A DNA stretch of 64,000 nucleotides, taken from the UHGV virus genome UHGV-0209617. One strand, given 5' to 3'. This document shows positions 4,755 to 51,911 of the stretch, piece by piece (the first letter of the stretch is position 1; each line of letters opens with the position of its first letter). The position numbers were made by a program, and so were the translations under genes. Source of the DNA: a virus. The notes under the pieces are model-generated. The model ran no database searches. It saw nothing but the letters and a program-made list of their open reading frames with translations, and was not told where the DNA came from.

Positions 4755-6365
4755 ATGGATGAGAAGAATTTTATCAGATATGGGGAGAAAGCTATAGAAT
4801 ACCTACATATGGGAGATGAACAAGGTTTTTTTGAGGCCTTGGGGGTTATTAAACATGTTGGAAATAAAGACTACGCTAATATGCTAACATCACTCTATTT
4901 TTATAAGAAAAAGCAGTTTAGAAAATGTATGGACTGTTTAGAAAAAATAGCAGAATGCAAAAACGATAATTTGAAGGAGATGTTAACGGTATGGTATTGG
5001 GATTTTAAAATATGTTGTTTGGCAGAGCAAAAAAAGTTTTCTGAAATATCGAGTATTTTTTGTGAAGATAAAGGACTGTTTAGCGAAGATGATGAGATCA
5101 TAATGCAATATTCAAGCTACGTATATGCTAGATATCTTGCAATAAAAAGTGGATTTCAAAAAGATAAAAACACTGTATATTATCCTGGAATTTTGGGTAA
5201 GAATGTTATTCGTACAGAAGATCAGTTTATGTCTGTTATTTACAGAGAATTAGGTCGAGATTTACTAGATATACATTTAAATTATCATGCTCTTTTACAA
5301 TTGAAGAAGGCAAATGTTGAAAAGAACATTTGTAGGGAAATGAAGGAAAAATTGTTAGTCAAGGTACAATATATCTGTGATTTAGGTGACCAGAAATATT
5401 ATGCATTAACACCGCAAGTTGTTAAATACATGGAGTATATTACAAATATCATTACCAATGAAAAAAATTTAAATGAGGATAAACTTAATGATTTGATTAT
5501 TTCTTTATTTTCAGACGAAATTTTAATCCAAGATATAGACAATTGGTTATTTATGGTTGATTTATTTTCTGTAACGGCAGATAATGAAAAATTTATTAAT
5601 TTCTTTAGATGTTATGATCAATTTATACTTAAATGTCTAAGTAGAGATAATGAGATCGTAGCAAAAAAATTAATATGGATGTGTAATGACGAGAGATTTT
5701 CCTCATTAAAATATGAACATACAACCTTTAAAGATTATTGGGAACATAAGATTGAGCTGTATATGCCTGGGTTTATTGCAAATAGTAGAGTTTATTCATG
5801 TGATAAATATATTCTTGATAATTTATCAGAAAAGAGTAAATGGGCATATGAAGCAGCAATATGGCAGTATGAAAATGTTATGGAATATGGCAGTGAATAT
5901 ATGGATGCTGGTTTGTTGAGTCTAGCGTTTATGAGAGTGCTAGAAACAGAATTGAATGCTAGAGTAATAGCGCCTTTATCAAAAGCTATAAGTGAAGATA
6001 CAAAGGGAAAAGCTTTACTAGACAAATTATTAGTTGGGGCTAATAGTTACCATTATAAGTTTTTGAAAAAAACGAATAAGGGAGCTACATTAGGTCAAAT
6101 CGGGCATTTTCTTGAGGGAATTCGGAAAAAAAGTATCGCAGAATATTCCTGTTTTTATAATATTTTATGTAATAGCTTATTGAGTATTTCTGGAAAAGAG
6201 GCCATAGATGCAGGGATATTCGAAGAAATGACTAGCCAAAAACTAATTGATAAGTATAGAAATCCACCTGCACATTCTAAATATCTTCAAAAGTCAGAAG
6301 CAGTAAAGGGAAAACTATTTGTAGAAGATAGTTTGAGAAAACTATTTACATATATTAACCGATAA
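4755..6365 (+). CDS. Hypothetical protein, 536 aa, unknown function, no signal peptide
   Basis: Long uninterrupted AT-rich ORF beginning where the paralog pseudogene homology stops; no P-loop, nuclease or other recognisable motif. Confidence 0.65.
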   Translation: MDEKNFIRYGEKAIEYLHMGDEQGFFEALGVIKHVGNKDYANMLTSLYFYKKKQFRKCMDCLEKIAECKNDNLKEMLTVWYWDFKICCLAEQKKFSEISSIFCEDKGLFSEDDEIIMQYSSYVYARYLAIKSGFQKDKNTVYYPGILGKNVIRTEDQFMSVIYRELGRDLLDIHLNYHALLQLKKANVEKNICREMKEKLLVKVQYICDLGDQKYYALTPQVVKYMEYITNIITNEKNLNEDKLNDLIISLFSDEILIQDIDNWLFMVDLFSVTADNEKFINFFRCYDQFILKCLSRDNEIVAKKLIWMCNDERFSSLKYEHTTFKDYWEHKIELYMPGFIANSRVYSCDKYILDNLSEKSKWAYEAAIWQYENVMEYGSEYMDAGLLSLAFMRVLETELNARVIAPLSKAISEDTKGKALLDKLLVGANSYHYKFLKKTNKGATLGQIGHFLEGIRKKSIAEYSCFYNILCNSLLSISGKEAIDAGIFEEMTSQKLIDKYRNPPAHSKYLQKSEAVKGKLFVEDSLRKLFTYINR

Positions 6366-6519: not shown

Positions 6520-7197
6520 TTGAGGAGAATATTTTCATATTTTTTAGCATTAATAATCATGTTATCGGCTACCACAGGAATGGCTGCTGATGACAGATGG
6601 GTATGTATAGAAGATGATGGTATAGGTCAATTCTATTTAGATTCCAAGACAACGTCATATGATTCAGCAGCAAATACAGTAAAGTTCTGGGTTAAATACG
6701 AAGAGAATTCCAAAATCGTAAATATGGATTACTATTTGGTGGATATCAGTAACACAAAATATGGTATTATGCGTTCAGCATTTTATCAAAATAAAACATA
6801 TCCGGAGATAAAGAATTATGAAAATGTGGTACCGCAAAATCCGATTTGGCCAGATGATATTATAGAGAAGGCAGCTAACATGGTATGTGATAATAACAAC
6901 GCTAAGCATATGTATCCTAGTGGTGTCGACAGGTGGCATTGGCTGTATTCCACTGAGCAGTGCACATACAATTATGCTCCTGGTATGGTAGTTGTAGATA
7001 AAGAAAAACGCACAGTGACAGTGTGGACGCAATCTGTATACCCGGAGCATGGAATTGGTGGTGTAACACGGTGGGTATGTTATTTTAATGAAAATATGGT
7101 GGAGCACACTAATAGCAGAGGTGTATATAAGCAGTATGTCTTGCCAGATACATTAGAGGAAGCTGTCTGGGAAAAAGCTGAGCCATATATGAAGTAA
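6520..7197 (+). CDS. Secreted hypothetical protein (TTG start, signal peptide)
   Basis: TTG preceded by AGGAG at 9-nt spacing; N-terminus RRIFSYFLALIIMLSATTGMAADD is signal-peptide-like. Confidence 0.55.
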   Translation: MRRIFSYFLALIIMLSATTGMAADDRWVCIEDDGIGQFYLDSKTTSYDSAANTVKFWVKYEENSKIVNMDYYLVDISNTKYGIMRSAFYQNKTYPEIKNYENVVPQNPIWPDDIIEKAANMVCDNNNAKHMYPSGVDRWHWLYSTEQCTYNYAPGMVVVDKEKRTVTVWTQSVYPEHGIGGVTRWVCYFNENMVEHTNSRGVYKQYVLPDTLEEAVWEKAEPYMK

Positions 7198-7392
7198 ATT
7201 ATTTATTTCATATATGGCCTATAGGTTAGAATTAAGGTCTAACTTTTTGAGGTTGGTACAACATAGGGGGAAATCTTTGCTGTCTTATTTTTTGTGCATG
7301 AAATTAGGAATTTATGTGGAATACTATAAAATATGTCAATAGATACATCAGTAAATAAGACTAAGGTTATAAGTATGGGAGGGGACCATAAT

Positions 7393-7959
7393 ATGCTTAA
7401 AAGAATATTCATAATGATTATCGTGTTGCAGGCATTTTTTATAGGGGTATGCTCTGCCAATTCGGGCAGATTAGCAGATATTGGAGCAGAAGTATTTAGA
7501 GGAAAAATGGTGGAGAGTACGAATTCTTTTGTGAGTGGATTAGAAATTAAAAAGCTATCAGGAGGAATGGCAAAGCTATATCCAGGAACAACATTATATA
7601 CATTTTTTATGTTTGATAATTTGAATACAGATAAAGTTGTCAGTGTTTCGGTATTTGTAAATCAAGAAGGTTATATTGATGCTATAGGCGTAGCTGGCTC
7701 AGGAGCAAGTGAAAGCAGTAGAGCGTTTTCGACAAATATTGTGGAAGAGTCTATGAGGGCTATTGGTTTAAGTAATGATGACATTAACTGCTTGACAACT
7801 AAAGGTATACAAGGGAAAAAATATCAAGGGGTAGTTTTTTCTGAAAATATGGGTAGAGACGTTTATTATACATTTTGGATGGGACCTAATGCTGTCCATT
7901 CAAGTATTATAGATAGAATGTCTTATACGAATAGGGGTAATTTGTTTAGAGCAAGTTAG
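7393..7959 (+). CDS. Secreted protein, paralog family member 2
   Basis: MLKRIFIMIIVLQAFFIGVCSANSGRLADIGAEVF...FVNQEGYIDAI...GRDVYY; conserved ~70-nt upstream leader shared with the copy at 3781. Confidence 0.7.
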   Translation: MLKRIFIMIIVLQAFFIGVCSANSGRLADIGAEVFRGKMVESTNSFVSGLEIKKLSGGMAKLYPGTTLYTFFMFDNLNTDKVVSVSVFVNQEGYIDAIGVAGSGASESSRAFSTNIVEESMRAIGLSNDDINCLTTKGIQGKKYQGVVFSENMGRDVYYTFWMGPNAVHSSIIDRMSYTNRGNLFRAS

Positions 7960-8060: not shown

Positions 8061-8633
8061 ATGATAAAAAGAATATTTTTTACGTTTATCGTGCTGCAGA
8101 TATTTTTTATAGGGCCATGCTATGCAAGTTCAGACAGATTAGCAGATATTGGAGCGGAGTTATTTAAAGAAAGAATTGTAGAAGATATACCTTTTGAGGT
8201 TACAGATTTCAAAATAGCAAATGAAGCGTCCGTTGCTAGAGAACAGCCACATATGGCTTGTGACTCTAAATACGAATTTATGGCAGTGCAGAATCAAAAT
8301 GTAATGCTTATGATTGATGTTTATGTAAACCGAGAAGGTTACATAGATAGTATTATTATATGTGGGCCATCCGTCGAAAAAAGAAATAGCAAGTTTTTAA
8401 CACTCGTATTAGCAGAGTCTATGAAGGCTATAGGATTAAATATGGATGAGATAATGTGGTTATGTTCTAAAGGTTCAATATCAGGAAATACATATGAGGG
8501 GAGTGTTTTTTCTACAGGAATGGGAAGAACTGTCTATTATAGTATGAGTTTAACATCGGATGGCTTTGGTATTAATAGAATCGATAGAATGTCTTTAACA
8601 GATAGGTTTACAAGATCAATGTTAGCTAACTAA
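8061..8633 (+). CDS. Secreted protein, paralog family member 3
   Basis: MIKRIFFTFIVLQIFFIGPCYASSDRLADIGAELF...VYVNREGYIDSI...GRTVYY; SD-like AAAGGGGAAG upstream. Confidence 0.7.
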   Translation: MIKRIFFTFIVLQIFFIGPCYASSDRLADIGAELFKERIVEDIPFEVTDFKIANEASVAREQPHMACDSKYEFMAVQNQNVMLMIDVYVNREGYIDSIIICGPSVEKRNSKFLTLVLAESMKAIGLNMDEIMWLCSKGSISGNTYEGSVFSTGMGRTVYYSMSLTSDGFGINRIDRMSLTDRFTRSMLAN

Positions 8634-8702
8634 GTTTAGATGATTGGCCTTTGGTTTGTGTTTTAGGTTGTTTACTAATAATTTTGCGTGTTAAATGGCA
8701 AT

Positions 8703-8736
8703 AAGGCAGCAGGGAAAATATCCTTGCTGCTTTATT
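8703..8736 (+). terminator. Rho-independent terminator candidate after paralog 3
   Basis: Imperfect hairpin GGCAGCAGGG / CCTTGCTGC followed by a T-rich run. Confidence 0.45.
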
Positions 8737-8988
8737 GTAGACAATTAAACAGAATGGCTAAGGAAAATAGATATTAATTCATTTTTACAGAACGTATGTA
8801 GATATGAGAGGTAGGCAGAAATGAACTTTCTTTTTTATGGGAAATTTGGGATAAATTTGTGTGATTTGCTCCAGTATTTTTCATTTTCATACTTTTTCAA
8901 AGCTTATTATGGTACAATATTATAAATAGATAATGCCTTAACTTATACTTTGAAGTGTTAATTGCTAGCTGAAATGGGTGTGATATAA

Positions 8989-9231
8989 ATGAGCGTTGTA
9001 GTAAAAAAAATAGGTGATATGTCTGTAAAAGTAATCAGTGCAGACGATATTGCTTCAATCCGCCGGGAAATAAGTAGTAGAGATATGGAAATGGATAAAA
9101 GAGCTGTTGTAGCCGTAAATTCAGCTATAAATAGGGCGCAGGTATGTAATAAGCCTATAGCTAAATATGATTTGGCAAGTGGAAGGGCATATTTAGAATA
9201 TGCTGATGGGAGTAGGGATTATGTCAACTAA
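8989..9231 (+). CDS. Hypothetical small protein (80 aa) overlapping the start of the zeta-like kinase pseudogene
   Basis: ORF with an extended -10-like TGgTACAAT upstream; its 3' end overlaps the ATG at 9221 by 11 nt. Confidence 0.5.
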   Translation: MSVVVKKIGDMSVKVISADDIASIRREISSRDMEMDKRAVVAVNSAINRAQVCNKPIAKYDLASGRAYLEYADGSRDYVN

Positions 9232-9773
9232 GAAGCAGATGATATTGGTGTTAGTTGGTTCCAATGGCTCTGGAAAAAGTACTATTACCAAATTCTTTGA
9301 TGTTGTTGGCGAATATACTAATGCTGATGATATTGTAGCAGCCACTGGAATGGATAATCTTGCTGCAGCACGAATGGCTGATGAAAAATGTATTCTGCTA
9401 TAAAAGAAAAACGGGATTTTACCTTTGAAACGGTACTATCTTCAGAGTATAAGTTTGATATATTAAATAAGGCTAAAGCAGAGGGTATTTTATTAAGTGT
9501 GTATTTGTATTGACCGTGAATCCCTACATAAATGTAGCTAGAGTGCAGATGCGTGTAGCTAATGGTGGTCATTTTGTGGAAAAAGATAAGATTTTATCAA
9601 GATACTATAAATCATTGACAAATATAAAGAAACTGTTAGAAATATGTGATATTATGCATGTTTATGATAATACCGTTACCCCAACGCGTATCATACGAAA
9701 GCATAAGGATGATATTTCTACTTTTGCTAGTGAAATATGGAGCGAAGAGCAGATTCTAAAACTTATGTATTAA
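9221..9773 (+). pseudogene. Zeta-toxin-like P-loop kinase gene disrupted by at least two frame changes
   Basis: Walker A LVGSNGSGKST in the first segment, ...RDFTFETVLSSEYKFDILNKAKAEGILLSVYLY in a second frame, ...RVQMRVANGGHFVEKDKILSRYY in a third; stops at 9403 and about 9511. Confidence 0.55.
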
Positions 9774-9815
9774 GATGGTTTATGTGTTTGTATTTGTGTA
9801 AAAATAAGTGAGGAT

Positions 9816-10085
9816 ATGATTTATCCATTTATGACATTGGAAGATGATACAGAAATTACTAATTCTGAAATGCAGGCAAATGGTGAGGTAAAGGTGTATG
9901 TTGAAACACCAGATGAAAAGGATTGTTTCCATAGTATGATATGTTATCTTCCTGATTATCGTGTTGAAAAGGTAGAGGGGTATTCAGAAGAAGTGGAAAA
10001 GTATCTTGATTTTATTCGCAAGGCTGCGAATCTTATCCTTGAATTTTCTCAGGAAGGTGGATTTAACCATGCCAAAGCTGTTTAA
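9816..10085 (+). CDS. Hypothetical protein (89 aa)
   Basis: ORF only; no recognisable motif. Confidence 0.4.
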   Translation: MIYPFMTLEDDTEITNSEMQANGEVKVYVETPDEKDCFHSMICYLPDYRVEKVEGYSEEVEKYLDFIRKAANLILEFSQEGGFNHAKAV

Positions 10086-10380
10086 GATTGGTTGCCTCAT
10101 ATTCCAGATACATTAAGAAACATTATGCGTATTTTTAGCAATGGGGCAGAATAGGGCATAACGGGGCATTTTAGAGCATTTCAGGAAAGGAAAATGGCAT
10201 GAATAAGATTTTGTTTATCTGCCACGGCAGCGTATAAGGATAGAGTCGATAAACCGCATGGCTACGGGACTTTTGCAACGGTTAAATGATATTCATATAC
10301 TGAAAGCATACCGTTTATGCTGGGTCTTGTATATTCTATTGTGAAACGGTTACATTGAATTATTAAACGATACATATACA

Positions 10381-10399
10381 TTAACGATTTAATCGTTAA
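10381..10399. promoter_or_regulatory. Perfect 9-1-9 palindrome TTAACGATT-T-AATCGTTAA (operator-like)
   Basis: Read directly; lies just upstream of a hairpin plus T-run. Confidence 0.4.
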
Positions 10400-10411
10400 A
10401 TAATACCTTTG

Positions 10412-10439
10412 AGACTCCCGGCTGTGCCTGGGAGTTTTT
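10412..10439 (+). terminator. Rho-independent terminator candidate
   Basis: ACTCCC...GGGAGT stem followed by TTTTT. Confidence 0.45.
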
Positions 10440-10488
10440 CAATATAGGAGAAGGCGAATTTACTTCATAGGAAATGTTCTTATAGCTG

Positions 10489-10517
10489 TTGCCGTTGTAC
10501 TATTGACTTGCTATAAT
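10489..10517 (+). promoter_or_regulatory. Sigma-A-type promoter candidate (TTGCCG, 17-bp spacer, extended -10 TGcTATAAT)
   Basis: Hexamer spacing and extended -10 read directly; 49 nt upstream of the ATG at 10566. Confidence 0.5.
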
Positions 10518-10565
10518 TTAATAAATGACAATATTAATTTAATGAAGATACGGAGATTTGAGCAT

Positions 10566-11384
10566 ATGGAAAAGAATCTTGATGAGGCTGTTAAATGGTT
10601 GCGTAAGGCAGCAGAGCTTGGGCATAAGGATGCAATGGTAAAGCTGGGCGAGCTACTCAGTGGTACAGAGGAGCCATTGACAAAACTATTGGAAAAATCA
10701 TATATGGAAGGCTATGCAGATGGCAAAAATGGCAAGGCTAATAAATATTTCAAGGAAGCATATATTAAATCTACTATGGATAGAGCAGGTTTTGTTAATG
10801 TTAAGGTTGGAGATATAATCACATTTGGCAATTATTGGCAGGATAAAGATAAGTCAGCTGGTAAGCAGCCAGTAGAGTGGCAGGTGCTTGATGTCAAGGA
10901 TGGCAAGGCATTAGTTATTAGTAAATATGGTTTAATAAATCATAAATATAATAAAGAATGGACGGATGTTACATGGGAAACATGTACCTTGAGAAAATGG
11001 CTGAATGATACCTTTATTAAGGATATTTTCTCCGCAGAGGAAATGAAGGCTGTTATGTTATCAGATGTTAGTGCAGATAAAAATCCTAATTATAACACAA
11101 ATCAGGGAAATGACACTAAGGATAAATTGTTCCTGCTGAGTATAAAGGAAGTGGAGCAATATTTTGTTAGTGATGAAAAAAGACTGTGTAAGCCAACAGA
11201 ATATGCAGTTAACAACGGAGCTTATGAGAATAACCGTGGGCATAGTTGGTGGTGGCTACGCTCTGCTGGTGGCTATAGTAGCGATGCGGCGTATGTGGTC
11301 AGTTATGGCTGCGTCTACTACAGTGGCCGTAGTGTGTTCAGCGACGATGGTTCTGTGCGCCCAGCTTTTTGGCTAAATCTTTAG
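10566..11384 (+). CDS. Sel1-like repeat plus DUF6273-like domain protein
   Basis: N-terminal DEAVKWLRKAAELGHKDAMVKLGELL is Sel1/TPR-like; C-terminal W-rich block (WQVLDV...WETCTLRKWLN...WWWLRSAGGYS...VRPAFWLNL) is typical of the DUF6273 pattern as I recall it; start chosen at the ATG with a GGAG upstream. Confidence 0.6.
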   Translation: MEKNLDEAVKWLRKAAELGHKDAMVKLGELLSGTEEPLTKLLEKSYMEGYADGKNGKANKYFKEAYIKSTMDRAGFVNVKVGDIITFGNYWQDKDKSAGKQPVEWQVLDVKDGKALVISKYGLINHKYNKEWTDVTWETCTLRKWLNDTFIKDIFSAEEMKAVMLSDVSADKNPNYNTNQGNDTKDKLFLLSIKEVEQYFVSDEKRLCKPTEYAVNNGAYENNRGHSWWWLRSAGGYSSDAAYVVSYGCVYYSGRSVFSDDGSVRPAFWLNL

Positions 11385-12357: not shown

Positions 12358-12386
12358 TTGTAATTACAGCTTAAATATGCTAAAAT
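12358..12386 (+). promoter_or_regulatory. Promoter candidate for the R-M operon (TTGTAA, 17 bp, TAAAAT) overlapped by palindrome TGTAATTACA; second GTAATTAC palindrome at 12306-12313
   Basis: Hexamers and palindromes read directly; the palindrome overlaps the -35. Confidence 0.4.
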
Positions 12387-12631
12387 ATAAGATGAAAGAC
12401 TATATGGAAATGGAGGAACTACAGTTGAGCGAAATGAAAAGAAAAATGCCTATGGAACATTTGAATATTGGTGAGTTCAACCGTGGGCAATCTTCAAAAC
12501 TAATCCGTAACTTGGTGGAAAAAGATAATGCTGCATTTATACAAAAAAATGGGAAGCCAATAGCCGTTGTTATCTCCTATGAACGATACGAGAGACTGCT
12601 TGAGTCTGGCATTGATATCAATGAGTTCTGA
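12377..12631 (+). CDS. Phd/YefM-fold small protein, first gene of the R-M operon (candidate controller); true start may be the in-frame TTG at 12425 or ATG at 12434-12452
   Basis: NIGEFNRGQSSKLIRNLVEKDNAAFIQKNGKPIAVVISYERYERLLE matches the Phd/YefM N-terminal pattern; ends 11 nt before the methyltransferase ORF; no toxin partner follows. Confidence 0.55.
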   Translation: MLKYKMKDYMEMEELQLSEMKRKMPMEHLNIGEFNRGQSSKLIRNLVEKDNAAFIQKNGKPIAVVISYERYERLLESGIDINEF

Positions 12632-12642
12632 GTATTCAAAAC

Positions 12643-14298
12643 ATGATTAAGGAGGTAACGGAGATGGTTGCGAAAAATTATGGTGTTGTTTACACACCGA
12701 ATAGACTGGCTGAGTTCGCAGCAGAACTTTTATATAGAGAGGCAGCAGAAACTAATACAGAAATAAAGTCGGTATTGGATCCTGCGTGTGGCGAATGCGC
12801 ATTGCTATGTGCTGCAAAGAAATATTTGAATGGTAATGTGAAATATTTGGGAATTGATGTCGATAAAGAAGCAATAATGAATGTTGAGGATGATTTTGAA
12901 ATTCTTTATAATGATTCAATTCTTCCGCGAAATGTAAAAAAACAGACGGCAGAATATTGGAAGAGCAAGATGCCAGTAATATCTGCTATAATTGCAAATC
13001 CACCGTGGAGTTCCGAAAAAATATATGTGCGAGAAGAATTGCAGAGTGCCGGTTTCTCGTTGACCACAGGACAATATGATAGCTTTGTGCTATTTATTGA
13101 GTTGGCATATAATCTGCTTGATGATGGAGGATACTTTTCGTTTATTATCCCCGATTCGTTATTTGATGCACAAAACGAAAAACTAAGAAGATTTTTGACT
13201 GAAAAGATGCAAATCAAAGTGATTGCCAGACTTGGAGAGAAGATTTTTGAAGAAGTGAATAGAGCAACTACTGTTATTGTTTGCAGAAAAGAAAAGCCAG
13301 TCAAAGATTCTGTCACCCACTGTTTCAGACTTACTACGGAAGAAAGAAGAAAGTTTTTGAATTCGAATCAGAGTTTGTTAAACTTTTACAACGAAGATGT
13401 GCATGATGTGTTGCAGGGGCGATTTGCTGAAAACGCTGCCTGTAACTTTGACGTTGATACGCGCACTGATGAAGAGGCATTGTTGGCTAAAATTAAGAAG
13501 CAGTCTATAAGTTGGGAGGATATATTCATTTTTGGTCGAGGTGTTGAGATATCCAAAACAGGAAAGGTCGTATTTTGTCCTTCGTGTGGTTATGCCCAAG
13601 GGTATAAAAAATCACAAATGGCTGAAGGAAAAAAAGAATGTACGAACTGTGGCAGTGAGATATCGGTTACTACGGCAAGTGTTCAAAATGTTATTTCACA
13701 AAGTCAAACGCCACAGACTGTTCAGATATATGTTGGAGAGAATGTTCGGAGATATGGAATAACAGGAGAATGCTATATCAAACCCAACATTCCCGGAATC
13801 AATTATAAAAATCGTGCGATGTACAACCCACCAAAACTGTTGGTGAGAAAGACTGGACTTGGAATATATGCATCGATTGATTATACGGGAAGCATGACAA
13901 GTCAGGCTGTATATATTTTGAAATTTAAAAACAGTCAACATAAGGCTCCGTTGGAATATTATCTGGCATTGCTTAACTCACGAGTGGTCTACTATTTTTA
14001 TTTGAAAGTATATGGAGAAAATGAATGGAAGTCCCATCCGTACTTTACGAAACAGATTATTTATTCTCTGCCTATTAGAGAATATGAGGATAGTGAGTTA
14101 GATAAACAGATCATTAAAGTGGCATCGGAATTGGCGCATAAATATGAATATGTCAAGGATGTTCAGCTTGAGAAGTTGGTAATGAAAAAGTATGGTCTGT
14201 CAGAGACCGAAAGCAATATGGTTTATGGTGAGATGAATCGTCTGCCTGACTTGAGTGCGATTAACAATATGAAAGTTGAGGTGGAAGCGAATGTATAG
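12643..14298 (+). CDS. N6-adenine DNA methyltransferase, gamma-class order (motif I then NPPW), with zinc ribbon and C-terminal recognition domain; probable start ATG at 12664
   Basis: VLDPACGECALL (motif I-like), IIANPPWS (motif IV), CPSCG...CTNCG zinc ribbon; AAGGAGGT 8 nt before the ATG at 12664. Confidence 0.85.
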   Translation: MIKEVTEMVAKNYGVVYTPNRLAEFAAELLYREAAETNTEIKSVLDPACGECALLCAAKKYLNGNVKYLGIDVDKEAIMNVEDDFEILYNDSILPRNVKKQTAEYWKSKMPVISAIIANPPWSSEKIYVREELQSAGFSLTTGQYDSFVLFIELAYNLLDDGGYFSFIIPDSLFDAQNEKLRRFLTEKMQIKVIARLGEKIFEEVNRATTVIVCRKEKPVKDSVTHCFRLTTEERRKFLNSNQSLLNFYNEDVHDVLQGRFAENAACNFDVDTRTDEEALLAKIKKQSISWEDIFIFGRGVEISKTGKVVFCPSCGYAQGYKKSQMAEGKKECTNCGSEISVTTASVQNVISQSQTPQTVQIYVGENVRRYGITGECYIKPNIPGINYKNRAMYNPPKLLVRKTGLGIYASIDYTGSMTSQAVYILKFKNSQHKAPLEYYLALLNSRVVYYFYLKVYGENEWKSHPYFTKQIIYSLPIREYEDSELDKQIIKVASELAHKYEYVKDVQLEKLVMKKYGLSETESNMVYGEMNRLPDLSAINNMKVEVEANV

Positions 14299-15349
14299 AT
14301 ATATAGGAAACAAATCAAAGCTGACTCCATACATTCTTGATAGGGTGGAACAGCTTATTGGAAAAACAGGAATTGTTGCTGACATTATGGCTGGAACAGG
14401 AACTGTGGCATTAGAATTGAGAAAAGCAGGTTATTCGGTTATCGCATCTGATGTAATGACCTATTCGTACCATCATTTGATGGTTAATCTTTGCTTAGAT
14501 TCAGCTCCTTCTTTTTCTGGGCTTGTGAATCATGGAGCAATAGGCAAGAATGAGGTGGATGCATATGGTGCAATCCTGACTTATTTAAATTGCATTGAAC
14601 CCAAAGAAGGTTTTTTCTTCAAGGAATTTTCTCCGGGTGGAACACCGCAGAATGGTTGCGACCCGAGAAAATATTTCACTACGGAAAATGCAAAGAAAAT
14701 TGATGCGATTAGAGAAAAAATAAATGAGTGGATTGATAATGGATATGTGAGCAAAGCTGAAGAATCGCTTTTAAAACATACTCTTATTATGGCAGTAAAC
14801 GAGGTTGCCAATATATCTGGAACTTACGGATATTTTTTGGCTGATTTCAAAAAGAATGCCAATGCACAGATTGATTTAAAACCTGTGGAATTTTGTTCTG
14901 TGAATTCAACTGGTCACATGGTAAAATTGGGATTTGCTGAAAATTTAGCTGCAACAATTACAGTTGATTTGTGCTACATCGACCCTCCGTATATGAAGAG
15001 ACAGTATGCTGCGAATTATCATATTCTGGAAACCATTGCACGAGGAGATTTCCCTGATGCTGTTGGTAAAAGTGGCTTGCGTGACTGGTGGGAGCAGCAC
15101 TCTAAATTGTGTACCAAAACACGAGGATTACAATCGTTTGAAAAGATATTAGGTGATATGCATTGCCCGAAATTTCTGATTAGCTACAGTGAGGATGGTT
15201 TGTTTACGCTGGGGCAATTAGAAGAATGTTTTAGCAAGTTTGGAACTGTTGACGTTCAAGAAATTGATTACAATCGATTTAGAAGCAATGATAGCAAGTT
15301 GCCTAAAAAACTGAAGGAATATTTGATTTCTATAGAAAGGCAGGTATAA
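14291..15349 (+). CDS. D12-class (Dam-like, alpha-order) N6-adenine DNA methyltransferase
   Basis: RYIGNKSKL N-terminal motif, ADIMAGTGTV (motif I), CYIDPPYM (motif IV); ATG overlaps the upstream stop (ATGTATAG). Confidence 0.85.
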   Translation: MYRYIGNKSKLTPYILDRVEQLIGKTGIVADIMAGTGTVALELRKAGYSVIASDVMTYSYHHLMVNLCLDSAPSFSGLVNHGAIGKNEVDAYGAILTYLNCIEPKEGFFFKEFSPGGTPQNGCDPRKYFTTENAKKIDAIREKINEWIDNGYVSKAEESLLKHTLIMAVNEVANISGTYGYFLADFKKNANAQIDLKPVEFCSVNSTGHMVKLGFAENLAATITVDLCYIDPPYMKRQYAANYHILETIARGDFPDAVGKSGLRDWWEQHSKLCTKTRGLQSFEKILGDMHCPKFLISYSEDGLFTLGQLEECFSKFGTVDVQEIDYNRFRSNDSKLPKKLKEYLISIERQV

Positions 15350-15353
15350 GTGA

Positions 15354-17024
15354 ATGGAGTGCATTGAAAGAATATTTTACAGAAAGATTAATCCTTCTGA
15401 TTTCAAAAAGTTGTATGATATTGACAAACCAGAAGGTGGCGGTGGTCAGACATACTTGGAAGCCGCTGGTATTTCAAATGAAAAAATCGTTGATTTCCTT
15501 TCCTATGCGGAGGTTACAAACAGTCCTTTGCCAGATGAAACAAGGTCTGTTTATACATTCAATGCCTATGTTTTGGGCGATTCAAAGGGTAAATGTTCGT
15601 TTGTAGAATTTGCACCTCGCAAAGGAAGAAATAACTATCGTATAAGCCGTCAGAACATGAAATATAAACATCCGGCATGGAGTTTGGATAATGGATTTCC
15701 CGAACCATCAAAAGGTGATGATGGCGAATACACATCTGCAGGCGATTTTGTGGGAATCATTGATAATCTTGTTATTCTTATCATAAGAACTACAAATCGG
15801 CGTTATTATGCAGGTTTTGTAAATATAGCGACAATGCCAGAGAACTGGCCACACAATATTGGCTTAGAGGGCATTTTTAGTGGTGAACGCAGAGATGTAC
15901 TAAAAATGGATGCGTATAAACTACAGTTTGTTAATGATGCCTGTAATCCATTCGGTGATTATGTCCCAACAATCGAAGAATGTAATCGAGCGACTACTGG
16001 TTGCAATGTGCTTTTGTACGGAGTTCCCGGAGCAGGAAAGAGTTGGACAATTGAACACGAATATTGTGCCGATGAAGGGTGTATGGAGCGATTGGTTTTC
16101 CATCCGGATTATATGTATTCGGATTTCGTTGGACAAATTTTGCCTGTAGTAAGGGACGATGACAAGGTTCGTTATGAGTTTACGCCGGGTCCGTTTACCA
16201 AATTATTAAAAAAAGCATATTGGAATACAGAACAGTCTTTTTACCTTATAATAGAAGAAATAAATCGTGGTAATGCACCAGCGATATTCGGTGAAATATT
16301 TCAGCTTTTGGATAGAAAAGATGAAGACGAAATAGATGAAAATAGGGAGATTCTCTACAAAAAAGGCACAAGTGAGTATGGAATAACAAATGCCAATATT
16401 GCACGAATCGTTTATGGCGATGAAAACCATAAGGTTCGAATTCCTGCAAATATGTCTATTTTGGGTACAATGAATACTTCTGACCAAAATGTTTTTACAT
16501 TAGACACAGCATTTCAGAGAAGATGGATTATGAGAATGATTCCGAATTCATTTGATAACCATAAGTTCGCAGACAAGAAGATTTTGGATACTGATATTTC
16601 CTGGAGACAGTTCTGTGAAGCAATTAATGAGGAAATTTTGCGTAGAAACAACATCACATCTTCTGAGGATAAGCGACTTGGGGCATATTTTATCTCGGCT
16701 TCGGATTTGGAGATGAAACCAATCACAGACGGGATGAGCGAAAAAGAAAAAATCCAAGTGGAGCATAGCAACAGCAGATTTGCAGAAAAAGTATTGAAAT
16801 ATTTATGGGATGATGCTTTCAAATTTTCCCATCAAGATACATTTAACACAAGACAGTTTGGTAGTCTTGAAAAAGTTATCGAAGGCTTTATGAATCCTGC
16901 CAAGCCTAAAAATGAGCGTTTTCGTGTATTCAATGAGAACCTTCGTAAAATGATTTTGGATGGAGTAACAGCAGAATCAAACGAGGTTTCTGATGATGAC
17001 AGCGAAGGCTCACAGGAATCTTAA
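15354..17024 (+). CDS. McrB-like AAA+ GTPase restriction subunit with an N-terminal domain of about 200 aa that I cannot assign
   Basis: LLYGVPGAGKSW (Walker A), LIIEEINRGNAPAIFGEIFQLLDR (McrB-type IDEINRAN-like motif), ILGTMNTSDQN (NTxD-type motif). Confidence 0.85.
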   Translation: MECIERIFYRKINPSDFKKLYDIDKPEGGGGQTYLEAAGISNEKIVDFLSYAEVTNSPLPDETRSVYTFNAYVLGDSKGKCSFVEFAPRKGRNNYRISRQNMKYKHPAWSLDNGFPEPSKGDDGEYTSAGDFVGIIDNLVILIIRTTNRRYYAGFVNIATMPENWPHNIGLEGIFSGERRDVLKMDAYKLQFVNDACNPFGDYVPTIEECNRATTGCNVLLYGVPGAGKSWTIEHEYCADEGCMERLVFHPDYMYSDFVGQILPVVRDDDKVRYEFTPGPFTKLLKKAYWNTEQSFYLIIEEINRGNAPAIFGEIFQLLDRKDEDEIDENREILYKKGTSEYGITNANIARIVYGDENHKVRIPANMSILGTMNTSDQNVFTLDTAFQRRWIMRMIPNSFDNHKFADKKILDTDISWRQFCEAINEEILRRNNITSSEDKRLGAYFISASDLEMKPITDGMSEKEKIQVEHSNSRFAEKVLKYLWDDAFKFSHQDTFNTRQFGSLEKVIEGFMNPAKPKNERFRVFNENLRKMILDGVTAESNEVSDDDSEGSQES

Positions 17025-17040
17025 AGCGAGGTGAGCGACA

Positions 17041-18321
17041 TTGGATTTAGGCTTAAACTTAAAAGTTAAATGTCATGTGAATAAAAATGGTGATGGCGAT
17101 AGGTTTGTCGGGATTAAGGCTGATGCTAATCAAGCAATGGTCTATTTTCCAATGGGGTATCGCCTGCCAGACAATGAAGAAGATATTAGGGATGATATTC
17201 TAAAATTGATTTCTGTATTAGCTGAGTTTACGGATTCAAAAGACAAGGTATTGGCTATGCAGAAATTTGAAGCACCACAGTCTGTGAATTTTCCAATCAA
17301 TGCCTATATGAATATTATCCGATACTATTTGGAACAACGTTCATATTACACAGAAAAGGATCCTATTCTAAAGACGAGTGACAGAGGAAAAATCGACTTT
17401 GCAGCATCTTTGCGTAGAAATGTTAGCTTTTTTCAAGAAGATGGAACTCCGTTTTTTGATAAATATACAGTAAAAGGGTCAACTCCTAATGATAAAAATT
17501 TAATAACTATGATTCACAAATACTGTGTGCATGAAAGTTTTGCTCAGATGGGTTGGCTGTTTATGCCGGATGTCCCACAAGATCCACATATTGAACGAAA
17601 CATTCCGCTTTTCCTCAGTGTACTGAAGAAAAAATTGGCAGTCACGCATCTTGAAAAGGATATTCTGCTATTTGAAGCAATGATTTCTATGCTGGAATAT
17701 TTGGATGAGAAAAGTGACGATAAACAATACTATTTTGGAACAGATAGATTTGAATATGTGTGGGAAAAACTGATAGATGCAGTGTTTGGCATAAAAGAAA
17801 AGAATGATTATTTTCCACGAACCTCTTGGAAACTAAACTATGGTGACCAACGAAGAAATTATGCATTAGAGCCGGACACCATAATGCTTTGTAATGGAAA
17901 AATCTATGTCATTGATGCAAAGTATTATAGATACGGTGTAACCGGTACACCTTCGCATTTGCCGGAATCATCATCTATCAACAAGCAGATTACATATGGT
18001 GAGTACATATATAATCATAAGAAATTTAAGGATGTATATGGTGATGATGTTCCTGTGTATAACGCATTCCTTATGCCGTATAACAAACAGGATAATCCAT
18101 TTCATATCAATGAGTATTTCGCCAATATTGGTGAGGCTGATAGTGACTGGAAATATGGCAATCATAATTATGAACGGGTGCAAGGAATTGTAGTTGATAT
18201 TCGTTTCTTGATGAACAATTACTATGGTTCGCACAAGAGTAAAATTATTAAGATGGCGAAGCTCATCGAGGAAGCCCTGCAGGAAAATGCAGATACGCTT
18301 CCAGAAGAAAAGACTGAATAA
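17041..18321 (+). CDS. McrC-like PD-(D/E)xK nuclease subunit (TTG start)
   Basis: ALEPDTIMLCNGKIYVIDAKYY gives PD...D-x-K; position immediately after the McrB-like gene; GAGGTGA 7 nt before the TTG. Confidence 0.75.
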   Translation: MDLGLNLKVKCHVNKNGDGDRFVGIKADANQAMVYFPMGYRLPDNEEDIRDDILKLISVLAEFTDSKDKVLAMQKFEAPQSVNFPINAYMNIIRYYLEQRSYYTEKDPILKTSDRGKIDFAASLRRNVSFFQEDGTPFFDKYTVKGSTPNDKNLITMIHKYCVHESFAQMGWLFMPDVPQDPHIERNIPLFLSVLKKKLAVTHLEKDILLFEAMISMLEYLDEKSDDKQYYFGTDRFEYVWEKLIDAVFGIKEKNDYFPRTSWKLNYGDQRRNYALEPDTIMLCNGKIYVIDAKYYRYGVTGTPSHLPESSSINKQITYGEYIYNHKKFKDVYGDDVPVYNAFLMPYNKQDNPFHINEYFANIGEADSDWKYGNHNYERVQGIVVDIRFLMNNYYGSHKSKIIKMAKLIEEALQENADTLPEEKTE

Positions 18322-46328: not shown

Positions 46329-46871
46329 ACTCCTTTGCTGAGTGGGTAGAGTATGCCGAAGGTTATGCTTACGGCATACTCGCACTTAAGCCAAGGGAGC
46401 TTGATGAAATAACGCCTGGAGAGTTTTATAAGATGCTGAAGGGCTACGAGGAACGGCAGGAAGTACACAATACTACCACAGCCTATTTCGTGACTAATCT
46501 TATGAACCTCTTTGGTAAATCACTTAAATCCAGTATGACAGTAGAGAAGCTCATGAAGCCGCTTCTCGGAACAAAGAAGAAATCCCCATCAGACAGGAAA
46601 GCTGATGAGGAATATCTACGGACATTATTCAACTTGGCGAAGAAGTAATATCTTCTTTTGGTGGTGCAGGTTGTACGGTGGTTTTACGGATACCTTCGAC
46701 AACCTGTTCTTTAGCATCCATAAGGGCTTCGTTTAACCCTTCGAGAATGGCTTCTGCAGGTGCAGATATTTTTTAACCCATAATTCTCGGCCTCCTTTAT
46801 GGTAAGCACTGCTGATATAGATATTATGCTTGGTTAATTGTAGTAAGTCAACAAATTATGGAGGGATTAGT

Positions 46872-49800
46872 GTGTCGGTAATTTCAAATTTAATGGTTAA
46901 GATCGGTGCAGATTCCTCCGGTCTTAAAAAAGGGCTGGCAGAAGCCGGCAATCAGATAAAAACATCATTCAATACGGCGCCCGTTGAAGCATTCAGCACC
47001 CAGGTGGATGCTTCAAGGAAAACTGTCGAGGGTCTTATCGGAAAGATGAAAGGCTTTGCCGTTCTTGCTGCCGGCGGTTTTGGTATGACTGCCATGATTA
47101 AGGGCATTGCTGAAGCAGGAGATAACTCCTATCGCCTCGCACAGCGTATGCACATAACTGCAGCAGAGGCAGGTGCCTTATCCAGAATCATGAGCATAAC
47201 GGGCGGTGATGTAAACTCCCTCTCCGGTGCCATGATGCGTCTAGATAAATCCTTTTCGTCTGCATCCACGGATGGAGAGCAGACAAGGGCAATCCTTGAT
47301 GCGGTTGGAGTAAGCCTTACCAATCAGAAGGGACAGCTTCTTCCGATAAACGAACAGCTGAAGAACTTGGCGGCTGGATATAAGAAAGCAACGGATGCTG
47401 GCTACGGTCAGGAGTTTATCATGAACACCCTGGGCGTAAAGGGTATGGCTCTTGTATCTACCCTGGAGCAGTACAATGAGGCTGCTGAAGCTGCAGGAAA
47501 GGTAAAGACTGTAGGCCTTGACCCGAAGGCTATGCATGAGCTTAATATGCAGCTGAAGATCATGCAGATGGAAAGCGGTCAGATACAGAATGCCCTTGTG
47601 ATGGGATTTGCACCCGTGGTGCAGGAGTTTCTGCCAGGAATTATGACAGGGCTTCAGACAACGGCCTTATTCCTTCGTGAAAATAAGACTGAGATTGCTG
47701 CCCTTACCAAGGCGGCAGTTGAGTTCTACCTTACCATGAAGGCAATAAGCCTTGTTACTACAGCTGGTGCCAATGTACTGAATTTCTGGAAATCCATAAG
47801 CATGGCTGCCAAGGAAAGTGCGGTCGTTCAGGAAGCAGTATCAGCAGAACTTACAGCAAAGCAGATATCCCAGATAAACAAGGTGGTGGCAAAGTCCAAT
47901 CAGGGCTATGCCAAGATGCAGGTTGATGCAATTAAGGCCGCCCAGAAGCAAGGGATGGCTTCTGAAGAAGCAAGGGCTAAGCTTGAAAAAGACCTGCTTG
48001 CAATTCAACTTGAGGCAGAAAAGACTGCAGCCTTCATAACAAGAAGCTTTACGGCACACTTTATGGAGGTAAATGCAGCGGCTAATGCCATGGCTGCGGG
48101 AACTGCTGAATCCATGACTGCTATGGGGGCGGCTGGGGTTAAGGCAACTACTGCCCAGACCATGGCAACAGCAGAGCTTACGGCAGCTCATGCAGCAGAA
48201 GGAGCTGCGGCATTAAGGGCTGGCGAGAGCAATGTGGCTGCCAGTGCTATGGCAACAAAGGCCACTGTATCACAGACTGTTGCAACAGGTGAGCTTACCG
48301 TTGCTACGGTAGCGTCTGGAAATGCTGCAGCCGTGGCAGGAGCAAAGACAGTTTCCTTTACAGCAGGGGCATTGAAGGGAATCAAGGCACTGCAGGCAGG
48401 AGTTCTTGCTCTGACTGGCGGCTGGCTTGGCCTTGCAGCTGCCATTGCCTATGCCGGATACTGCCTTTATGAGTATCAGAGCGAGAAGATCGCAGAGGAA
48501 AAAGCACATACCTATACTGTTGATGGCCAGCAGTATGAAGAAAAGAATGGCTATTTCTATACCAAGGACAGGGTGAATCCTGATTGGGAGCCAAGCCCTT
48601 ATGATGAGTTTGATGATACTGCCATCATCAAGGGCGGTGAGCTGGTAACAGACAATGACCTCAATGAAAAGCTACAGGCAGCATGGTGGGAACGCCATAA
48701 GGATGACCCGGATTATAAGGCACATCTTGAGCAGGAGGCTGCCGAGACAAAGATGCGTGAGGCAGACAGCAAGCTGGCCGAACTAATGCAGAACCTTAAT
48801 GTAGGAACAGAAAGCGGCTCTAAGGCTCCAGTAAAGGAGCCTGTTACTTATGAGGTGGCTGTGCCAGTAGGTGAGGATGTTGTTGCGGCCGCTATGTATC
48901 ATGTTGGAGAGTCCTGGGGTGAAAATACCTGCTCCATCTTTGCGTCCAAGATGCTGGAAGAGGCAGGTATAACAGGACTATCAGATCCAAACGGGGATAA
49001 TATGGCAGCAAAAGCAGGAGCAGCCTATCACGATGTGAATGATGGTTACCAGCCGAAAGCTGGTGATGTCATTGAGTGGGGCGGTCATGTCGGTATTTAT
49101 GATGGAAATGGCGGATATATTGCATCCAACACAAAGACAGGAGTTCATCATGGCTCCATGGATGAAGCTGAAAGCTGGTTCGGACCGGTGCAGGGTTATA
49201 TCAGCACAGCAGAGTACACTGGGAACAAGACGGTGCTCAAGAACATGGATAGTGAAGCCAAGGCTGTGGAAGATGCCACCGCCAAGCTGAATAAGGCTAA
49301 AGAGGATGCCAAGAAATTATTCTCATCCATGGAATCCGAGATTCAGCGTGAGACAGGCACAGAATACAGCTATGGCATGAACCAGATTGAAGCCAATATC
49401 CGCAAAAAGCAGGTGGAAATTAATCAGCTGAAGGAGTCTGGGGTAGATACCGGTATGCTTGAAAAGGAGCTTCAGGACTATGAGACAGTGCTTAAATCCA
49501 AGATTATAGATAACTGGGAAAAAGCAAACGAGGAAATAAAGGGTTCTACCGCTGTAACCCTGGCAGAGGTAAAGAAAAACTACATCCAGGCAGCAGACGA
49601 AGAGTACAAGGTTACTCTTCAGAAGCTTGCCAGGGAGAGGGAGGAAAAGGAAAAAGAGCTGCTTCGGGATAAGGAGGATGCAGAAAGCCGCCTTGCTATA
49701 GATGAGTGGTATGCAGCTGAATCCTTGAAAGCTATGGAAACAAGGAATAAGAACATACGGGCAAGCTACAGCAAACTGATTTCAGATCTGGAAGAGACTG

Positions 49801-50579
49801 GTGATATAGATGCCCTGCAGGATTTTCTAGGTTCTAATGATGCGCAGGATATGATGTATCTTGAAGGACAGCAGAATCTTGCCAGAGCCTATGTGGATAT
49901 TTGGAAGGAAGCCCATAAAACCACCGAGGATATGGTGGCTGACCTTGCTGTAAGCGTCAACAGCTCAATGGCTGACAGCCTTAAAAGCTTCATTACTGGC
50001 TCAAAGACTGCAATGGATGTGGTGCATGACCTTGGCAGAACCATCATGAACACAATAGCTGAAATCGTAGCCAAGAAAGCTGCCACCCAGATTGTTACCT
50101 CCATGTTTGGAGGATTCTTCAAGGATGGCGGTGAGCTGCCAGGATTTGCTTCGGGAGGCTCTATTGCCGGCGGATATATCAGCGGTGCGGGGACGGGTAA
50201 AAGCGACAGCATAGTTGCGTATCTTGAGAGAAGCGGTCAGTTCGTAAGGCTCTCTGATGGAGAGTTCGTCATGACTGCCGAGGCTACAAGGAAGAACCGC
50301 CCAATGCTTGAAGCCATGAACGCAGGTGCCTATGCTAATGGTGGCTTCATAACAGCTCCGGGAGTAAGACCAGCCTATGCCGGTTCATATTCTGTTGGAA
50401 GCAATCAGCCGGCTGGTGGTGTCATAGTAAACATTACAAATAACTCCGACAGCAGGGTTGAAGCAAGACAGGCAGGATTTGACTCGCAGGCCCAGCGTTA
50501 TATTTTGGATATTGTGATAGACGGAGCACAGAGAAATGTAAACGGTTTTGGAAATAATCTTAAAGCAGTGATGGGGTGA
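46872..50579 (+). CDS. Tape measure protein with embedded CHAP/NlpC-P60-like peptidoglycan hydrolase domain (GTG start)
   Basis: 1236 aa, Ala/Gln-rich coiled-coil-like segments; ENTCSIFASKML...GDVIEWGGHVGIYDG Cys/His hydrolase-like block. Confidence 0.8.
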   Translation: MSVISNLMVKIGADSSGLKKGLAEAGNQIKTSFNTAPVEAFSTQVDASRKTVEGLIGKMKGFAVLAAGGFGMTAMIKGIAEAGDNSYRLAQRMHITAAEAGALSRIMSITGGDVNSLSGAMMRLDKSFSSASTDGEQTRAILDAVGVSLTNQKGQLLPINEQLKNLAAGYKKATDAGYGQEFIMNTLGVKGMALVSTLEQYNEAAEAAGKVKTVGLDPKAMHELNMQLKIMQMESGQIQNALVMGFAPVVQEFLPGIMTGLQTTALFLRENKTEIAALTKAAVEFYLTMKAISLVTTAGANVLNFWKSISMAAKESAVVQEAVSAELTAKQISQINKVVAKSNQGYAKMQVDAIKAAQKQGMASEEARAKLEKDLLAIQLEAEKTAAFITRSFTAHFMEVNAAANAMAAGTAESMTAMGAAGVKATTAQTMATAELTAAHAAEGAAALRAGESNVAASAMATKATVSQTVATGELTVATVASGNAAAVAGAKTVSFTAGALKGIKALQAGVLALTGGWLGLAAAIAYAGYCLYEYQSEKIAEEKAHTYTVDGQQYEEKNGYFYTKDRVNPDWEPSPYDEFDDTAIIKGGELVTDNDLNEKLQAAWWERHKDDPDYKAHLEQEAAETKMREADSKLAELMQNLNVGTESGSKAPVKEPVTYEVAVPVGEDVVAAAMYHVGESWGENTCSIFASKMLEEAGITGLSDPNGDNMAAKAGAAYHDVNDGYQPKAGDVIEWGGHVGIYDGNGGYIASNTKTGVHHGSMDEAESWFGPVQGYISTAEYTGNKTVLKNMDSEAKAVEDATAKLNKAKEDAKKLFSSMESEIQRETGTEYSYGMNQIEANIRKKQVEINQLKESGVDTGMLEKELQDYETVLKSKIIDNWEKANEEIKGSTAVTLAEVKKNYIQAADEEYKVTLQKLAREREEKEKELLRDKEDAESRLAIDEWYAAESLKAMETRNKNIRASYSKLISDLEETGDIDALQDFLGSNDAQDMMYLEGQQNLARAYVDIWKEAHKTTEDMVADLAVSVNSSMADSLKSFITGSKTAMDVVHDLGRTIMNTIAEIVAKKAATQIVTSMFGGFFKDGGELPGFASGGSIAGGYISGAGTGKSDSIVAYLERSGQFVRLSDGEFVMTAEATRKNRPMLEAMNAGAYANGGFITAPGVRPAYAGSYSVGSNQPAGGVIVNITNNSDSRVEARQAGFDSQAQRYILDIVIDGAQRNVNGFGNNLKAVMG

Positions 50580-51531: not shown

Positions 51532-51911
51532 TGTACAGTGATTTGATTGGTGTGCCATTTGAAGATGGCGGCAGGAACAAAAATGGTATGGACTGCTGGG
51601 GTCTTGTGATGGAGTGCTTTTTCCGTAAGGGAATAGTTCTGCCGGAATATGGTATATCTGCAGAGGAGCTTCTAAGAATTTCAGACAAAATGGCATCTGA
51701 AGAATCCAAATGGGAAAAGCTCACTGAACCGACAGACGGATGCCTTGTGCTTATCCGCACTGCTGAAGGTGCATGGGCAAACCATGTGGGAATCTATATC
51801 GGGGATGGCAGGTTCATCCATGCATATCCCGCAGCAGGGGTATGCATTTCTAAAATCTCTCGCTGGAAGAGTCACATTGTAGGTTTTTATTATCCGAAGG
51901 AGGGCGGCTGA
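51528..51911 (+). CDS. NlpC/P60-family tail-associated peptidase (gpK-like)
   Basis: DCWGLVMECF...H...GDGRFIHA Cys/His pattern. Confidence 0.7.
   Translation: MMYSDLIGVPFEDGGRNKNGMDCWGLVMECFFRKGIVLPEYGISAEELLRISDKMASEESKWEKLTEPTDGCLVLIRTAEGAWANHVGIYIGDGRFIHAYPAAGVCISKISRWKSHIVGFYYPKEGG

Follow-up and report, generated by a model that had tools for sequence, protein, structure and literature searches.

Among the zeta-type systems, epsilon/zeta of pSM19035 and PezA/PezT of Streptococcus pneumoniae combine a small upstream gene with a coupled gene for a P-loop kinase that passes the Pfam model Zeta_toxin (PF06414). These kinases carry a Walker A motif and, shortly 3' of it, an invariant Asp, which is catalytic (zeta D67, PezT D66 and, in the related Rv0366c, D36). 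The gene arrangement, a Walker A motif and an invariant Asp shortly after it recur in the locus considered here, positions 8989-9773 on the + strand of a 64,000-nucleotide stretch of the virus genome UHGV-0209617 (the whole stretch is called the window below). There, an 80-aa open reading frame (ORF) is followed by three short ORFs in three frames, as seen in the ORF listing and by direct reading, and these three together read as one disrupted P-loop kinase that likewise passes PF06414. We consider it probable that the locus is what remains, after erosion, of a self-contained type II toxin-antitoxin (TA)-like cassette of two genes, with the kinase dead and its partner intact.

Canonical zeta and PezT kinases are about 250-290 aa long. 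The kinase of this locus is unlike them in having 184 aa when repaired, only 14-17% identity to the zeta and PezT structures and no GTXR, the motif by which zeta and PezT bind UDP-N-acetylglucosamine (UNAG) (PMC6362051). Rv0366c of Mycobacterium tuberculosis is a 197-aa zeta-like toxin that also has no GTXR; its toxicity depends on K15, D36 and R116, H122 is conserved, and its substrate has been proposed to differ from UNAG (PMC6362051). Compared by description, its P-loop Lys, Asp36, Arg and His have counterparts here in K19, D36, R112 and H118, with an equal Arg-to-His spacing. Its antitoxin Rv0367c, in contrast, is a ParD-like protein of 129 aa (PF11903), unrelated to the 80-aa partner. In AvrRxo1-Arc1 of Xanthomonas, a zeta-fold NAD kinase, acting on a nucleotide cofactor and not on UNAG, is neutralised by a small partner that serves as its chaperone or antitoxin (PMC6362051). 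AvrRxo1 gives the highest TM-score to the kinase model (0.74, with 4z8q), but it is a secreted effector of far greater size (crystal chains of about 330 residues), with 13-14% identity and an unrelated partner. Antitoxins of the epsilon/PezA type are three-helix bundles, with an N-terminal helix-turn-helix domain in PezA. The 80-aa partner comes without sequence similarity to them, a helix-turn-helix domain or an omega regulator, and no three-helix bundle is predicted in its low-confidence model.

Erosion of such cassettes from the toxin side is well documented, and the present locus is an ordinary case of it. A survey of chromosomal TA systems in Photorhabdus counted 185 copies in which only the toxin was a pseudogene, 186 in which both genes were, and 8 in which only the antitoxin was defective or absent; toxin-only pseudogenisation is the common route of erosion (PMC13617665). 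The locus shares with these cases a truncated or frameshifted toxin ORF next to an open antitoxin ORF; it differs in that the erosion is seen across metagenome-derived alleles of one gut-bacterial locus, with at least three inactivating events. The elements of the cassette in the window are the following (basis in brackets where one applies).

8989-9231, + strand: intact partner gene, 80 aa, candidate antitoxin (ORF listing)
9003-9010, + strand: run of eight A in partner codons 5-8, intact in the window; in sister alleles, loss of 1 bp here truncates the partner
9221-9231, + strand: 11-nt overlap of partner stop and kinase start, ATGTCAACTAA
9221-9773, + strand: P-loop kinase of the Zeta_toxin family, 184 aa, now a pseudogene divided among three frames (repair, Pfam, DNA alignment)
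9221 (or 9200)-9403, + strand: first kinase ORF (ORF listing)
9257-9283, + strand: Walker A motif or P-loop, GSNGSGKST (translation)
9384-9390, + strand: frameshift 1, six A reduced to five at 9384-9388, plus G>T at 9389
9388-9513, + strand: middle kinase fragment, residues ~57-89, second frame (ORF listing and repair)
9483-9486, + strand: frameshift 2, the C of GGC-TAT lost between 9485 and 9486
9486-9773, + strand: C-terminal kinase part, residues 90-184, third frame (repair)
9510-9773, + strand: third kinase ORF (ORF listing)

A first, sequence-only reading of the window had described a Walker A kinase that can be followed through three frames and an 80-aa ORF overlapping its start by 11 nt. 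Both descriptions are accurate, the coordinates and overlap included: the kinase ATG at 9221 is overlapped by exactly 11 nt of the 80-aa ORF. The same 11-nt overlap is present in L001 and L002, two metagenome contigs with an uninterrupted kinase gene that served as the reference for mapping the lesions by DNA alignment, and it suggests translational coupling of partner and kinase.

The sequence-only reading had further proposed that the kinase gene is inactivated by at least two frame changes, and the alignment with L001 and L002 resolves these to exactly two 1-bp deletions. At frameshift 1 the window has GATGAAAAATGTAT where the intact gene has GATGAAAAAAGGTAT, after which the frame reads EKCILL and meets a stop at 9401-9403. 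At frameshift 2 it has GAGGGTATTTT where the intact gene has GAGGGCTATTTC; a lone C is lost, outside any homopolymer. Restoring one base at each site yields a 184-aa protein with zero stops. Contigs from several other samples have an 80-aa gene identical to that of the window, and the frameshift 1 lesion is common to L083-L086 and L088 among them. L083 (119 kb) and L088 carry both frameshifts and are 100% identical to the window over 785 and 685 aligned nt of the cassette, and three contigs from three other studies (L084, SAMEA10739666; L085, SRR30334848; L086, ERR7365099) carry frameshift 1 only, with kinase fragments of 60 and 128 aa. Zero copies of either frameshift site were found among the IMG/VR viral contigs, and a scan of JGI metagenomes over site 2 gave three loci, namely two intact alleles and one with a stop at E70, with frameshift 2 in none.

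Site 1 lies within an A run, the kind of place where sequencing or assembly errors might break a gene that is intact in the organism. Such errors are highly improbable here, as site 1 also has the G>T change, site 2 is a lone C loss, frameshift 1 occurs in at least four other samples or studies, both frameshifts occur in L083 and L088, an intermediate allele with frameshift 1 only exists, and the lineage carries four specific replacements at invariant residues together with an inflated ratio of replacement to silent changes. Because frameshift 1 recurs in other assemblies, the lesions are not simple homopolymer errors and the broken lineage is under relaxed selection, the frameshifts are genuine lesions. 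The A run at site 1 could also slip during expression, and programmed ribosomal frameshifting or phase variation might then still supply a full-length kinase. This would require two separate +1 corrections, with no slippery run at site 2; the kinase is moreover a single intact ORF in 71 of 80 homologous loci, invariant P-loop residues are lost here, and in other alleles a stop codon or a deletion has destroyed the gene. We therefore give this explanation hardly any credence.

The broken allele of the window belongs to a larger series. The kinase falls in a 90%-identity cluster of 156 members, and the following proportions, taken from the 15 members listed, are rough. Among these, the plain form with five A (EKGILL, then a stop) is represented by P0138 and P0142 and the form of the window (EKCILL, then a stop) by P0133, P0136, P0140 and P0143, with an additional Walker A change, G16S, in P0136 and P0143. 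A form ending after DFTF (P0134, P0137, P0144) is found on 54 contigs, P0145 is a form with an extra 1-bp deletion, C-terminal kinase fragments of 74 aa occur on about 200 contigs, and the intact 184-aa kinase accounts for 11 contigs among the members listed. The DFTF form results from the E70 stop codon and constitutes a separate haplotype lineage (L091-L108 and L118) with its own replacements F25L, N34D, D66N, E141G, T152I and S171N. In L089 and L090, the 80-aa gene is kept and about 460 bp are lost from the middle of the kinase gene. These alleles, which are about 98% identical, show at least three independent kinase inactivations.

With changes polarised by L002, the more distant intact allele, replacement and silent changes in the kinase stand at 13:3 on the broken lineages against 6:34 between intact alleles (Fisher p=5e-6). 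Four of the five replacements on the window lineage (P6Q, A12V, P14S and R57M) fall at columns invariant in 42-46 homologues, the set to which invariance refers throughout, as do N34D and the E70 stop in the E70-stop lineage. P14S lies inside the Walker A motif, the family invariant being AGPNGSGKST, and A12V just 5' of it. L001 (which corresponds to P0002), the allele taken as an intact reference, has replacements of its own at residues 94 and 117, including G117S at an invariant column. Missense changes may thus have attenuated some uninterrupted alleles, which would then not be truly active.

The partner gene has fared differently. Its copy in the window is intact, with one conservative change (A41V), and its replacement-to-silent ratio across the ingroup haplotypes is 2:5 against a neutral ratio of about 3:1 (binomial p=0.013, with small numbers and some homoplasic sites). 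The sequence-only reading had seen in the locus a pattern of toxin decay with the antitoxin retained, which holds for the window; in one sister lineage, the partner is starting to decay as well. There, the haplotype table records a deletion in the run of eight A (15delA; 9003-9010) for L096, L097 and L091, and two 15delA alleles are also without the next start codon (M11I), which gives a call of 48 aa. Because alleles of the E70-stop lineage have 15delA, two of them with M11I, the order of erosion is toxin first and partner later in at least one lineage. A distant member of the kinase family is truncated as well in the cultured isolate Lachnospira intestinalis CLA-AA-H89B (L058), where the ORF has 81 aa and tblastn matches residues 1-137 only; the decay of the kinase thus extends outside the clade of the window.

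Conceptual repair and a hidden Markov model search bear out the assignment of the kinase to the zeta type by the sequence-only reading. The repaired protein scores 42.6 bits against the Pfam Zeta_toxin model PF06414 (cut-off 22.3; E=5.9e-11). Its database homologues number 1,549, and the nearest are intact 184-aa proteins with 92-95% identity; over the full length, identity is 95% to the intact proteins P0001 and P0002, a level well past what chance would give, and 94% to P0003, and all close homologues have a precomputed PF06414 match. The AlphaFold2 model of the intact homologue P0146 has a high predicted local distance difference test score (pLDDT 91.8), and its top Foldseek matches in the PDB are zeta (3q8x/1gvn), PezT (2p5t) and AvrRxo1 (4z8q), with E-values of 3e-6 to 8e-6, TMq of 0.60-0.74 and identities of 13-17%. 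K19, D36, E70, R108, R112 and H118 are invariant across the homologues, as is the motif G13-x-N-G-S-G-K19-S/T; the equivalence of D36 with zeta D67 is suggested by position only. At the level of superfamily and fold, the label of a zeta-toxin-like P-loop kinase is justified.

The pairing of this kinase with its small upstream partner is conserved far outside the window. The 80 kinase-homologue loci mentioned above were fetched from species-representative genomes of Bacillota, Spirochaetota, Bacteroidota, Synergistota and Desulfovibrio, and the genera and families surveyed include Selenomonas, Schwartzia, Anaerovibrio, Butyrivibrio, Lachnospiraceae, Oscillospiraceae, Treponema, Bacteroides, Fretibacterium and Desulfovibrio. 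A small ORF ends at the kinase start in 79 of these loci, the sole exception lying at a contig end, and in 46 of the 80 the 11-nt overlap is identical. These upstream ORFs measure 57-97 aa (a small number have longer calls that begin further upstream) and are all homologous to the 80-aa protein of the window (phmmer E 1e-30 to 5e-4). Their conserved core in alignment A3, D-EMD-R...KPIAxYD...AYLEYPDGxxxY, appears in the window as D-EMD-R...KPIAKYD...AYLEYxDGxRxYV. Looked up from the partner side, homologues with about 59% identity each precede an intact Zeta_toxin protein of 183/184 aa, in differing neighbourhoods, and a partner profile run against 1.84 billion cluster representatives recovered 295 clusters, all of stand-alone proteins of 40-172 aa. 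Because the pairing is kept in 79 of 80 loci and also when approached from the partner, it fits a self-contained TA-like cassette. The suggestion of an epsilon-like antitoxin upstream of the kinase therefore stands as far as position is concerned, with a homologous small gene in 79 of 80 loci, and fails for sequence and predicted fold: the partner appears, judging by its model, to be epsilon-like in position only. An 89-aa ORF further downstream (9816-10085) was considered as a third component and rejected, as its homologues occur in the closest clade only, apart from a weak match in L008; they are absent from the 80 species-representative loci, and L002 has a different downstream gene. In several sister contigs (L084-L086, L101-L106 and L108) this ORF has 72-74% identity and is called with 46 aa; it appears to be decaying or to have suffered deletions there.

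Several observations weigh against the reading of the locus as a TA remnant. Polynucleotide kinases and the kinase domains of PFK-2 match the P0146 model almost equally well (E ~2e-5 vs 3e-6). Profiles built from 12 and 42 family members do not list zeta or PezT among their PDB matches (18 matches at E<=1 for the 12-sequence profile, and the best 60 of 112 at E<=10 for the 42-sequence profile); the matches listed are at P-loop level only, apart from Pnkp1, the sole long match, at E=0.02. GTXR, which binds UNAG, occurs neither in the window protein nor in the family consensus. On the side of the partner, confidence in the AlphaFold2 model is low (pLDDT 70.7); the model predicts a hairpin, a long helix (18-52) and a three-stranded sheet, Foldseek found no PDB fold match for it at E<=0.001, and the partner has no DNA-binding domain for autoregulation. 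Frameshift 2 is found in just two other assemblies, L083 and L088, which possibly derive from the same or a related sample as the window. Finally, with the partner also being lost in one sister lineage, the retention of the antitoxin may partly be a matter of timing. Because GTXR is absent and the profiles miss zeta and PezT, the kinase is a short non-canonical form and not a canonical UNAG kinase.

Some of these points would suit a cassette that is no TA system at all, in which a benign accessory kinase, active in repair in the manner of polynucleotide kinases or on a small molecule, is served by the partner as a regulatory or adaptor subunit and decays through dispensability. The fold matches to Pnkp of Clostridium thermocellum and to Pnkp1 nearly equal those to zeta, the one long profile match is to Pnkp1, and the UNAG motif is missing. 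However, an obligatory, coupled, tiny partner, a patchy distribution across phyla and differing neighbourhoods point to a selfish or defence-type cassette, and independent knock-outs of the kinase in near-identical alleles, with the 243-bp partner gene mostly open, follow the pattern of toxin-first TA erosion. We regard a benign kinase as unlikely.

In intact relatives of the cassette, the gene for a 65-80-aa protein is translationally coupled to that for a 184-aa P-loop kinase of the zeta superfamily. If the locus is the remnant of a TA-like cassette, as we prefer, this kinase would, by analogy with zeta, PezT, AvrRxo1 and Rv0366c, use ATP to phosphorylate an essential metabolite of nucleotide type, not necessarily UNAG, and so bring about growth arrest; the residues expected to be active are K19 of Walker A, D36 as the catalytic base, R108, R112 and H118. 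Binding of the partner would occlude the nucleotide site of the kinase, which is how epsilon, PezA and Arc1 neutralise theirs. Decay would have started with the deletion in the A run, followed by the G>T change, then the second 1-bp deletion and then the loss of the invariant residues P6, A12, P14 and R57, so that active kinase is presumably not produced from the copy in the window. Immunity against related cassettes that arrive later may be what maintains the partner, or its decay may just not have begun.

The surroundings of the cassette indicate where it resides. GC content is 31-38% over about 4-20 kb, a low-GC accessory island that includes the cassette, and jumps to 45-49% near 20 kb, where a siphovirus-like block begins with genes for an exonuclease, a DNA polymerase, a primase-helicase, a large terminase, a portal, a major head protein, a tape measure and tail protein J. 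This block does not include the cassette, although the NCBI record calls the whole 154.7-kb contig Caudoviricetes. In other human-gut samples (L091-L108), it is situated between uvrA and genes for LMWPc, DUF896 and oxaloacetate decarboxylase, and other occupants of the uvrA spot differ by sample (Fic, Virulence_RhuM, McrBC, an Eco57I-type methylase and TnpV). This spot looks like a chromosomal hotspot for variable, defence or accessory genes, and the cassette is probably not core phage DNA despite the Caudoviricetes label. The neighbouring features are the following.

10503-11384: DUF6273 protein, downstream of the cassette
12377-12631: 84-aa gene, matching Phd/YefM antitoxins below threshold; no toxin partner evident
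12643-14298: N6_Mtase/Eco57I/TaqI_C methyltransferase
14276-15349: D12-class methyltransferase
15354-17024: AAA_5 McrB-like protein
17041-18321: RE_LlaJI
~20000-62000: higher-GC siphovirus-like prophage or phage block
38503-40170: large terminase
46830-50579: tape measure
51911-55603: tail protein J

The genes at 12643-18321 form a complete LlaJI-type restriction-modification system 3 kb downstream of the cassette. Together with the Fic, RhuM, McrBC or Eco57I-type genes at the same spot elsewhere and with weak matches of the P-loop region to the defence ATPases HEC-01A (6e-8) and MAD3 (6e-7), this could indicate that the intact cassette is mainly an anti-phage module, acting by abortive infection or otherwise in defence, and that the copy in the window, within a defence island, has been disarmed. 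However, the matches in PADLOC and NCBIfam score far under the family cut-offs and cover mostly the P-loop, and we think it quite improbable that defence is the main role. A defence role is nevertheless compatible with the reading as a TA remnant and not exclusive of it.

Taken singly, the locus is of little weight, being one more chromosomal TA remnant. The cassette family is widespread in gut and rumen bacteria, and would bring to the zeta-kinase toxins a new type of antitoxin and, probably, a new substrate. Pfam (in a scan that included 23 diverse members), NCBIfam, PADLOC and PHROGs have no family that matches the 80-aa partner. With no family for the partner in these four libraries and a kinase of short, non-canonical zeta type, the kinase-partner family appears to be undescribed; no literature combining zeta toxin with COG4185 was found, and the survey by Makarova (2009) does not mention zeta. 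With slightly less than even probability, the short zeta-fold kinase (about 184 aa) and its 65-80-aa partner may further form a distinct, uncharacterised TA or defence family of gut and rumen anaerobes, with a new antitoxin fold and a non-UNAG substrate; the repeated independent knock-outs in human-gut populations would then show that the active toxin is costly in vivo, with the partner maintained for immunity against related incoming cassettes. A natural decay series is provided by the metagenome alleles, from the intact gene through one frameshift to two frameshifts with P-loop substitutions, alongside parallel stop-codon and deletion lineages, and this series can be used to study how, and in which order, cassettes are disarmed in the wild.

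Some minor observations concern the annotation and the flanks of the cassette. The protein fragments of the window have exact counterparts at NCBI, DAM45501-DAM45505, from a 154,734-bp third-party-annotation (TPA) contig of "Caudoviricetes sp.", in which the three kinase fragments are not flagged as one pseudogene. The 60-aa N-terminal kinase fragment (9221-9403) is labelled there "HPr Serine kinase C-terminal domain" (DAM45502.1), a label that most likely reflects a P-loop-only resemblance. A consensus scan upstream of the partner gene gave one weakly supported candidate:

8894-8923, + strand: candidate sigma-70-like promoter, TTTTCA/TTCAAA ... TATTAT

The count of promoter consensus sites upstream of the cassette is not above the shuffled expectation; the region of the candidate is conserved in L001 and L002. 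An operator scan found only small palindromes upstream of the cassette, and the search for RNA elements in 8400-10600 returned a single Rfam match, at chance level. Further upstream, neither the larger ORFs at 4755-6365 and 6520-7197 nor two tandem paralogues at 7333-7959 (208 aa) and 8061-8633 (190 aa) have a family, the latter two having been compared with Pfam and PHROG. The paralogues have similar N-terminal hydrophobic, signal-like segments, after which comes the shared motif RLADIGAE(V/L)F, and a 17-nt inverted repeat (8699-8737) lies just 3' of the stop of the second (8633), the gene that precedes the cassette.

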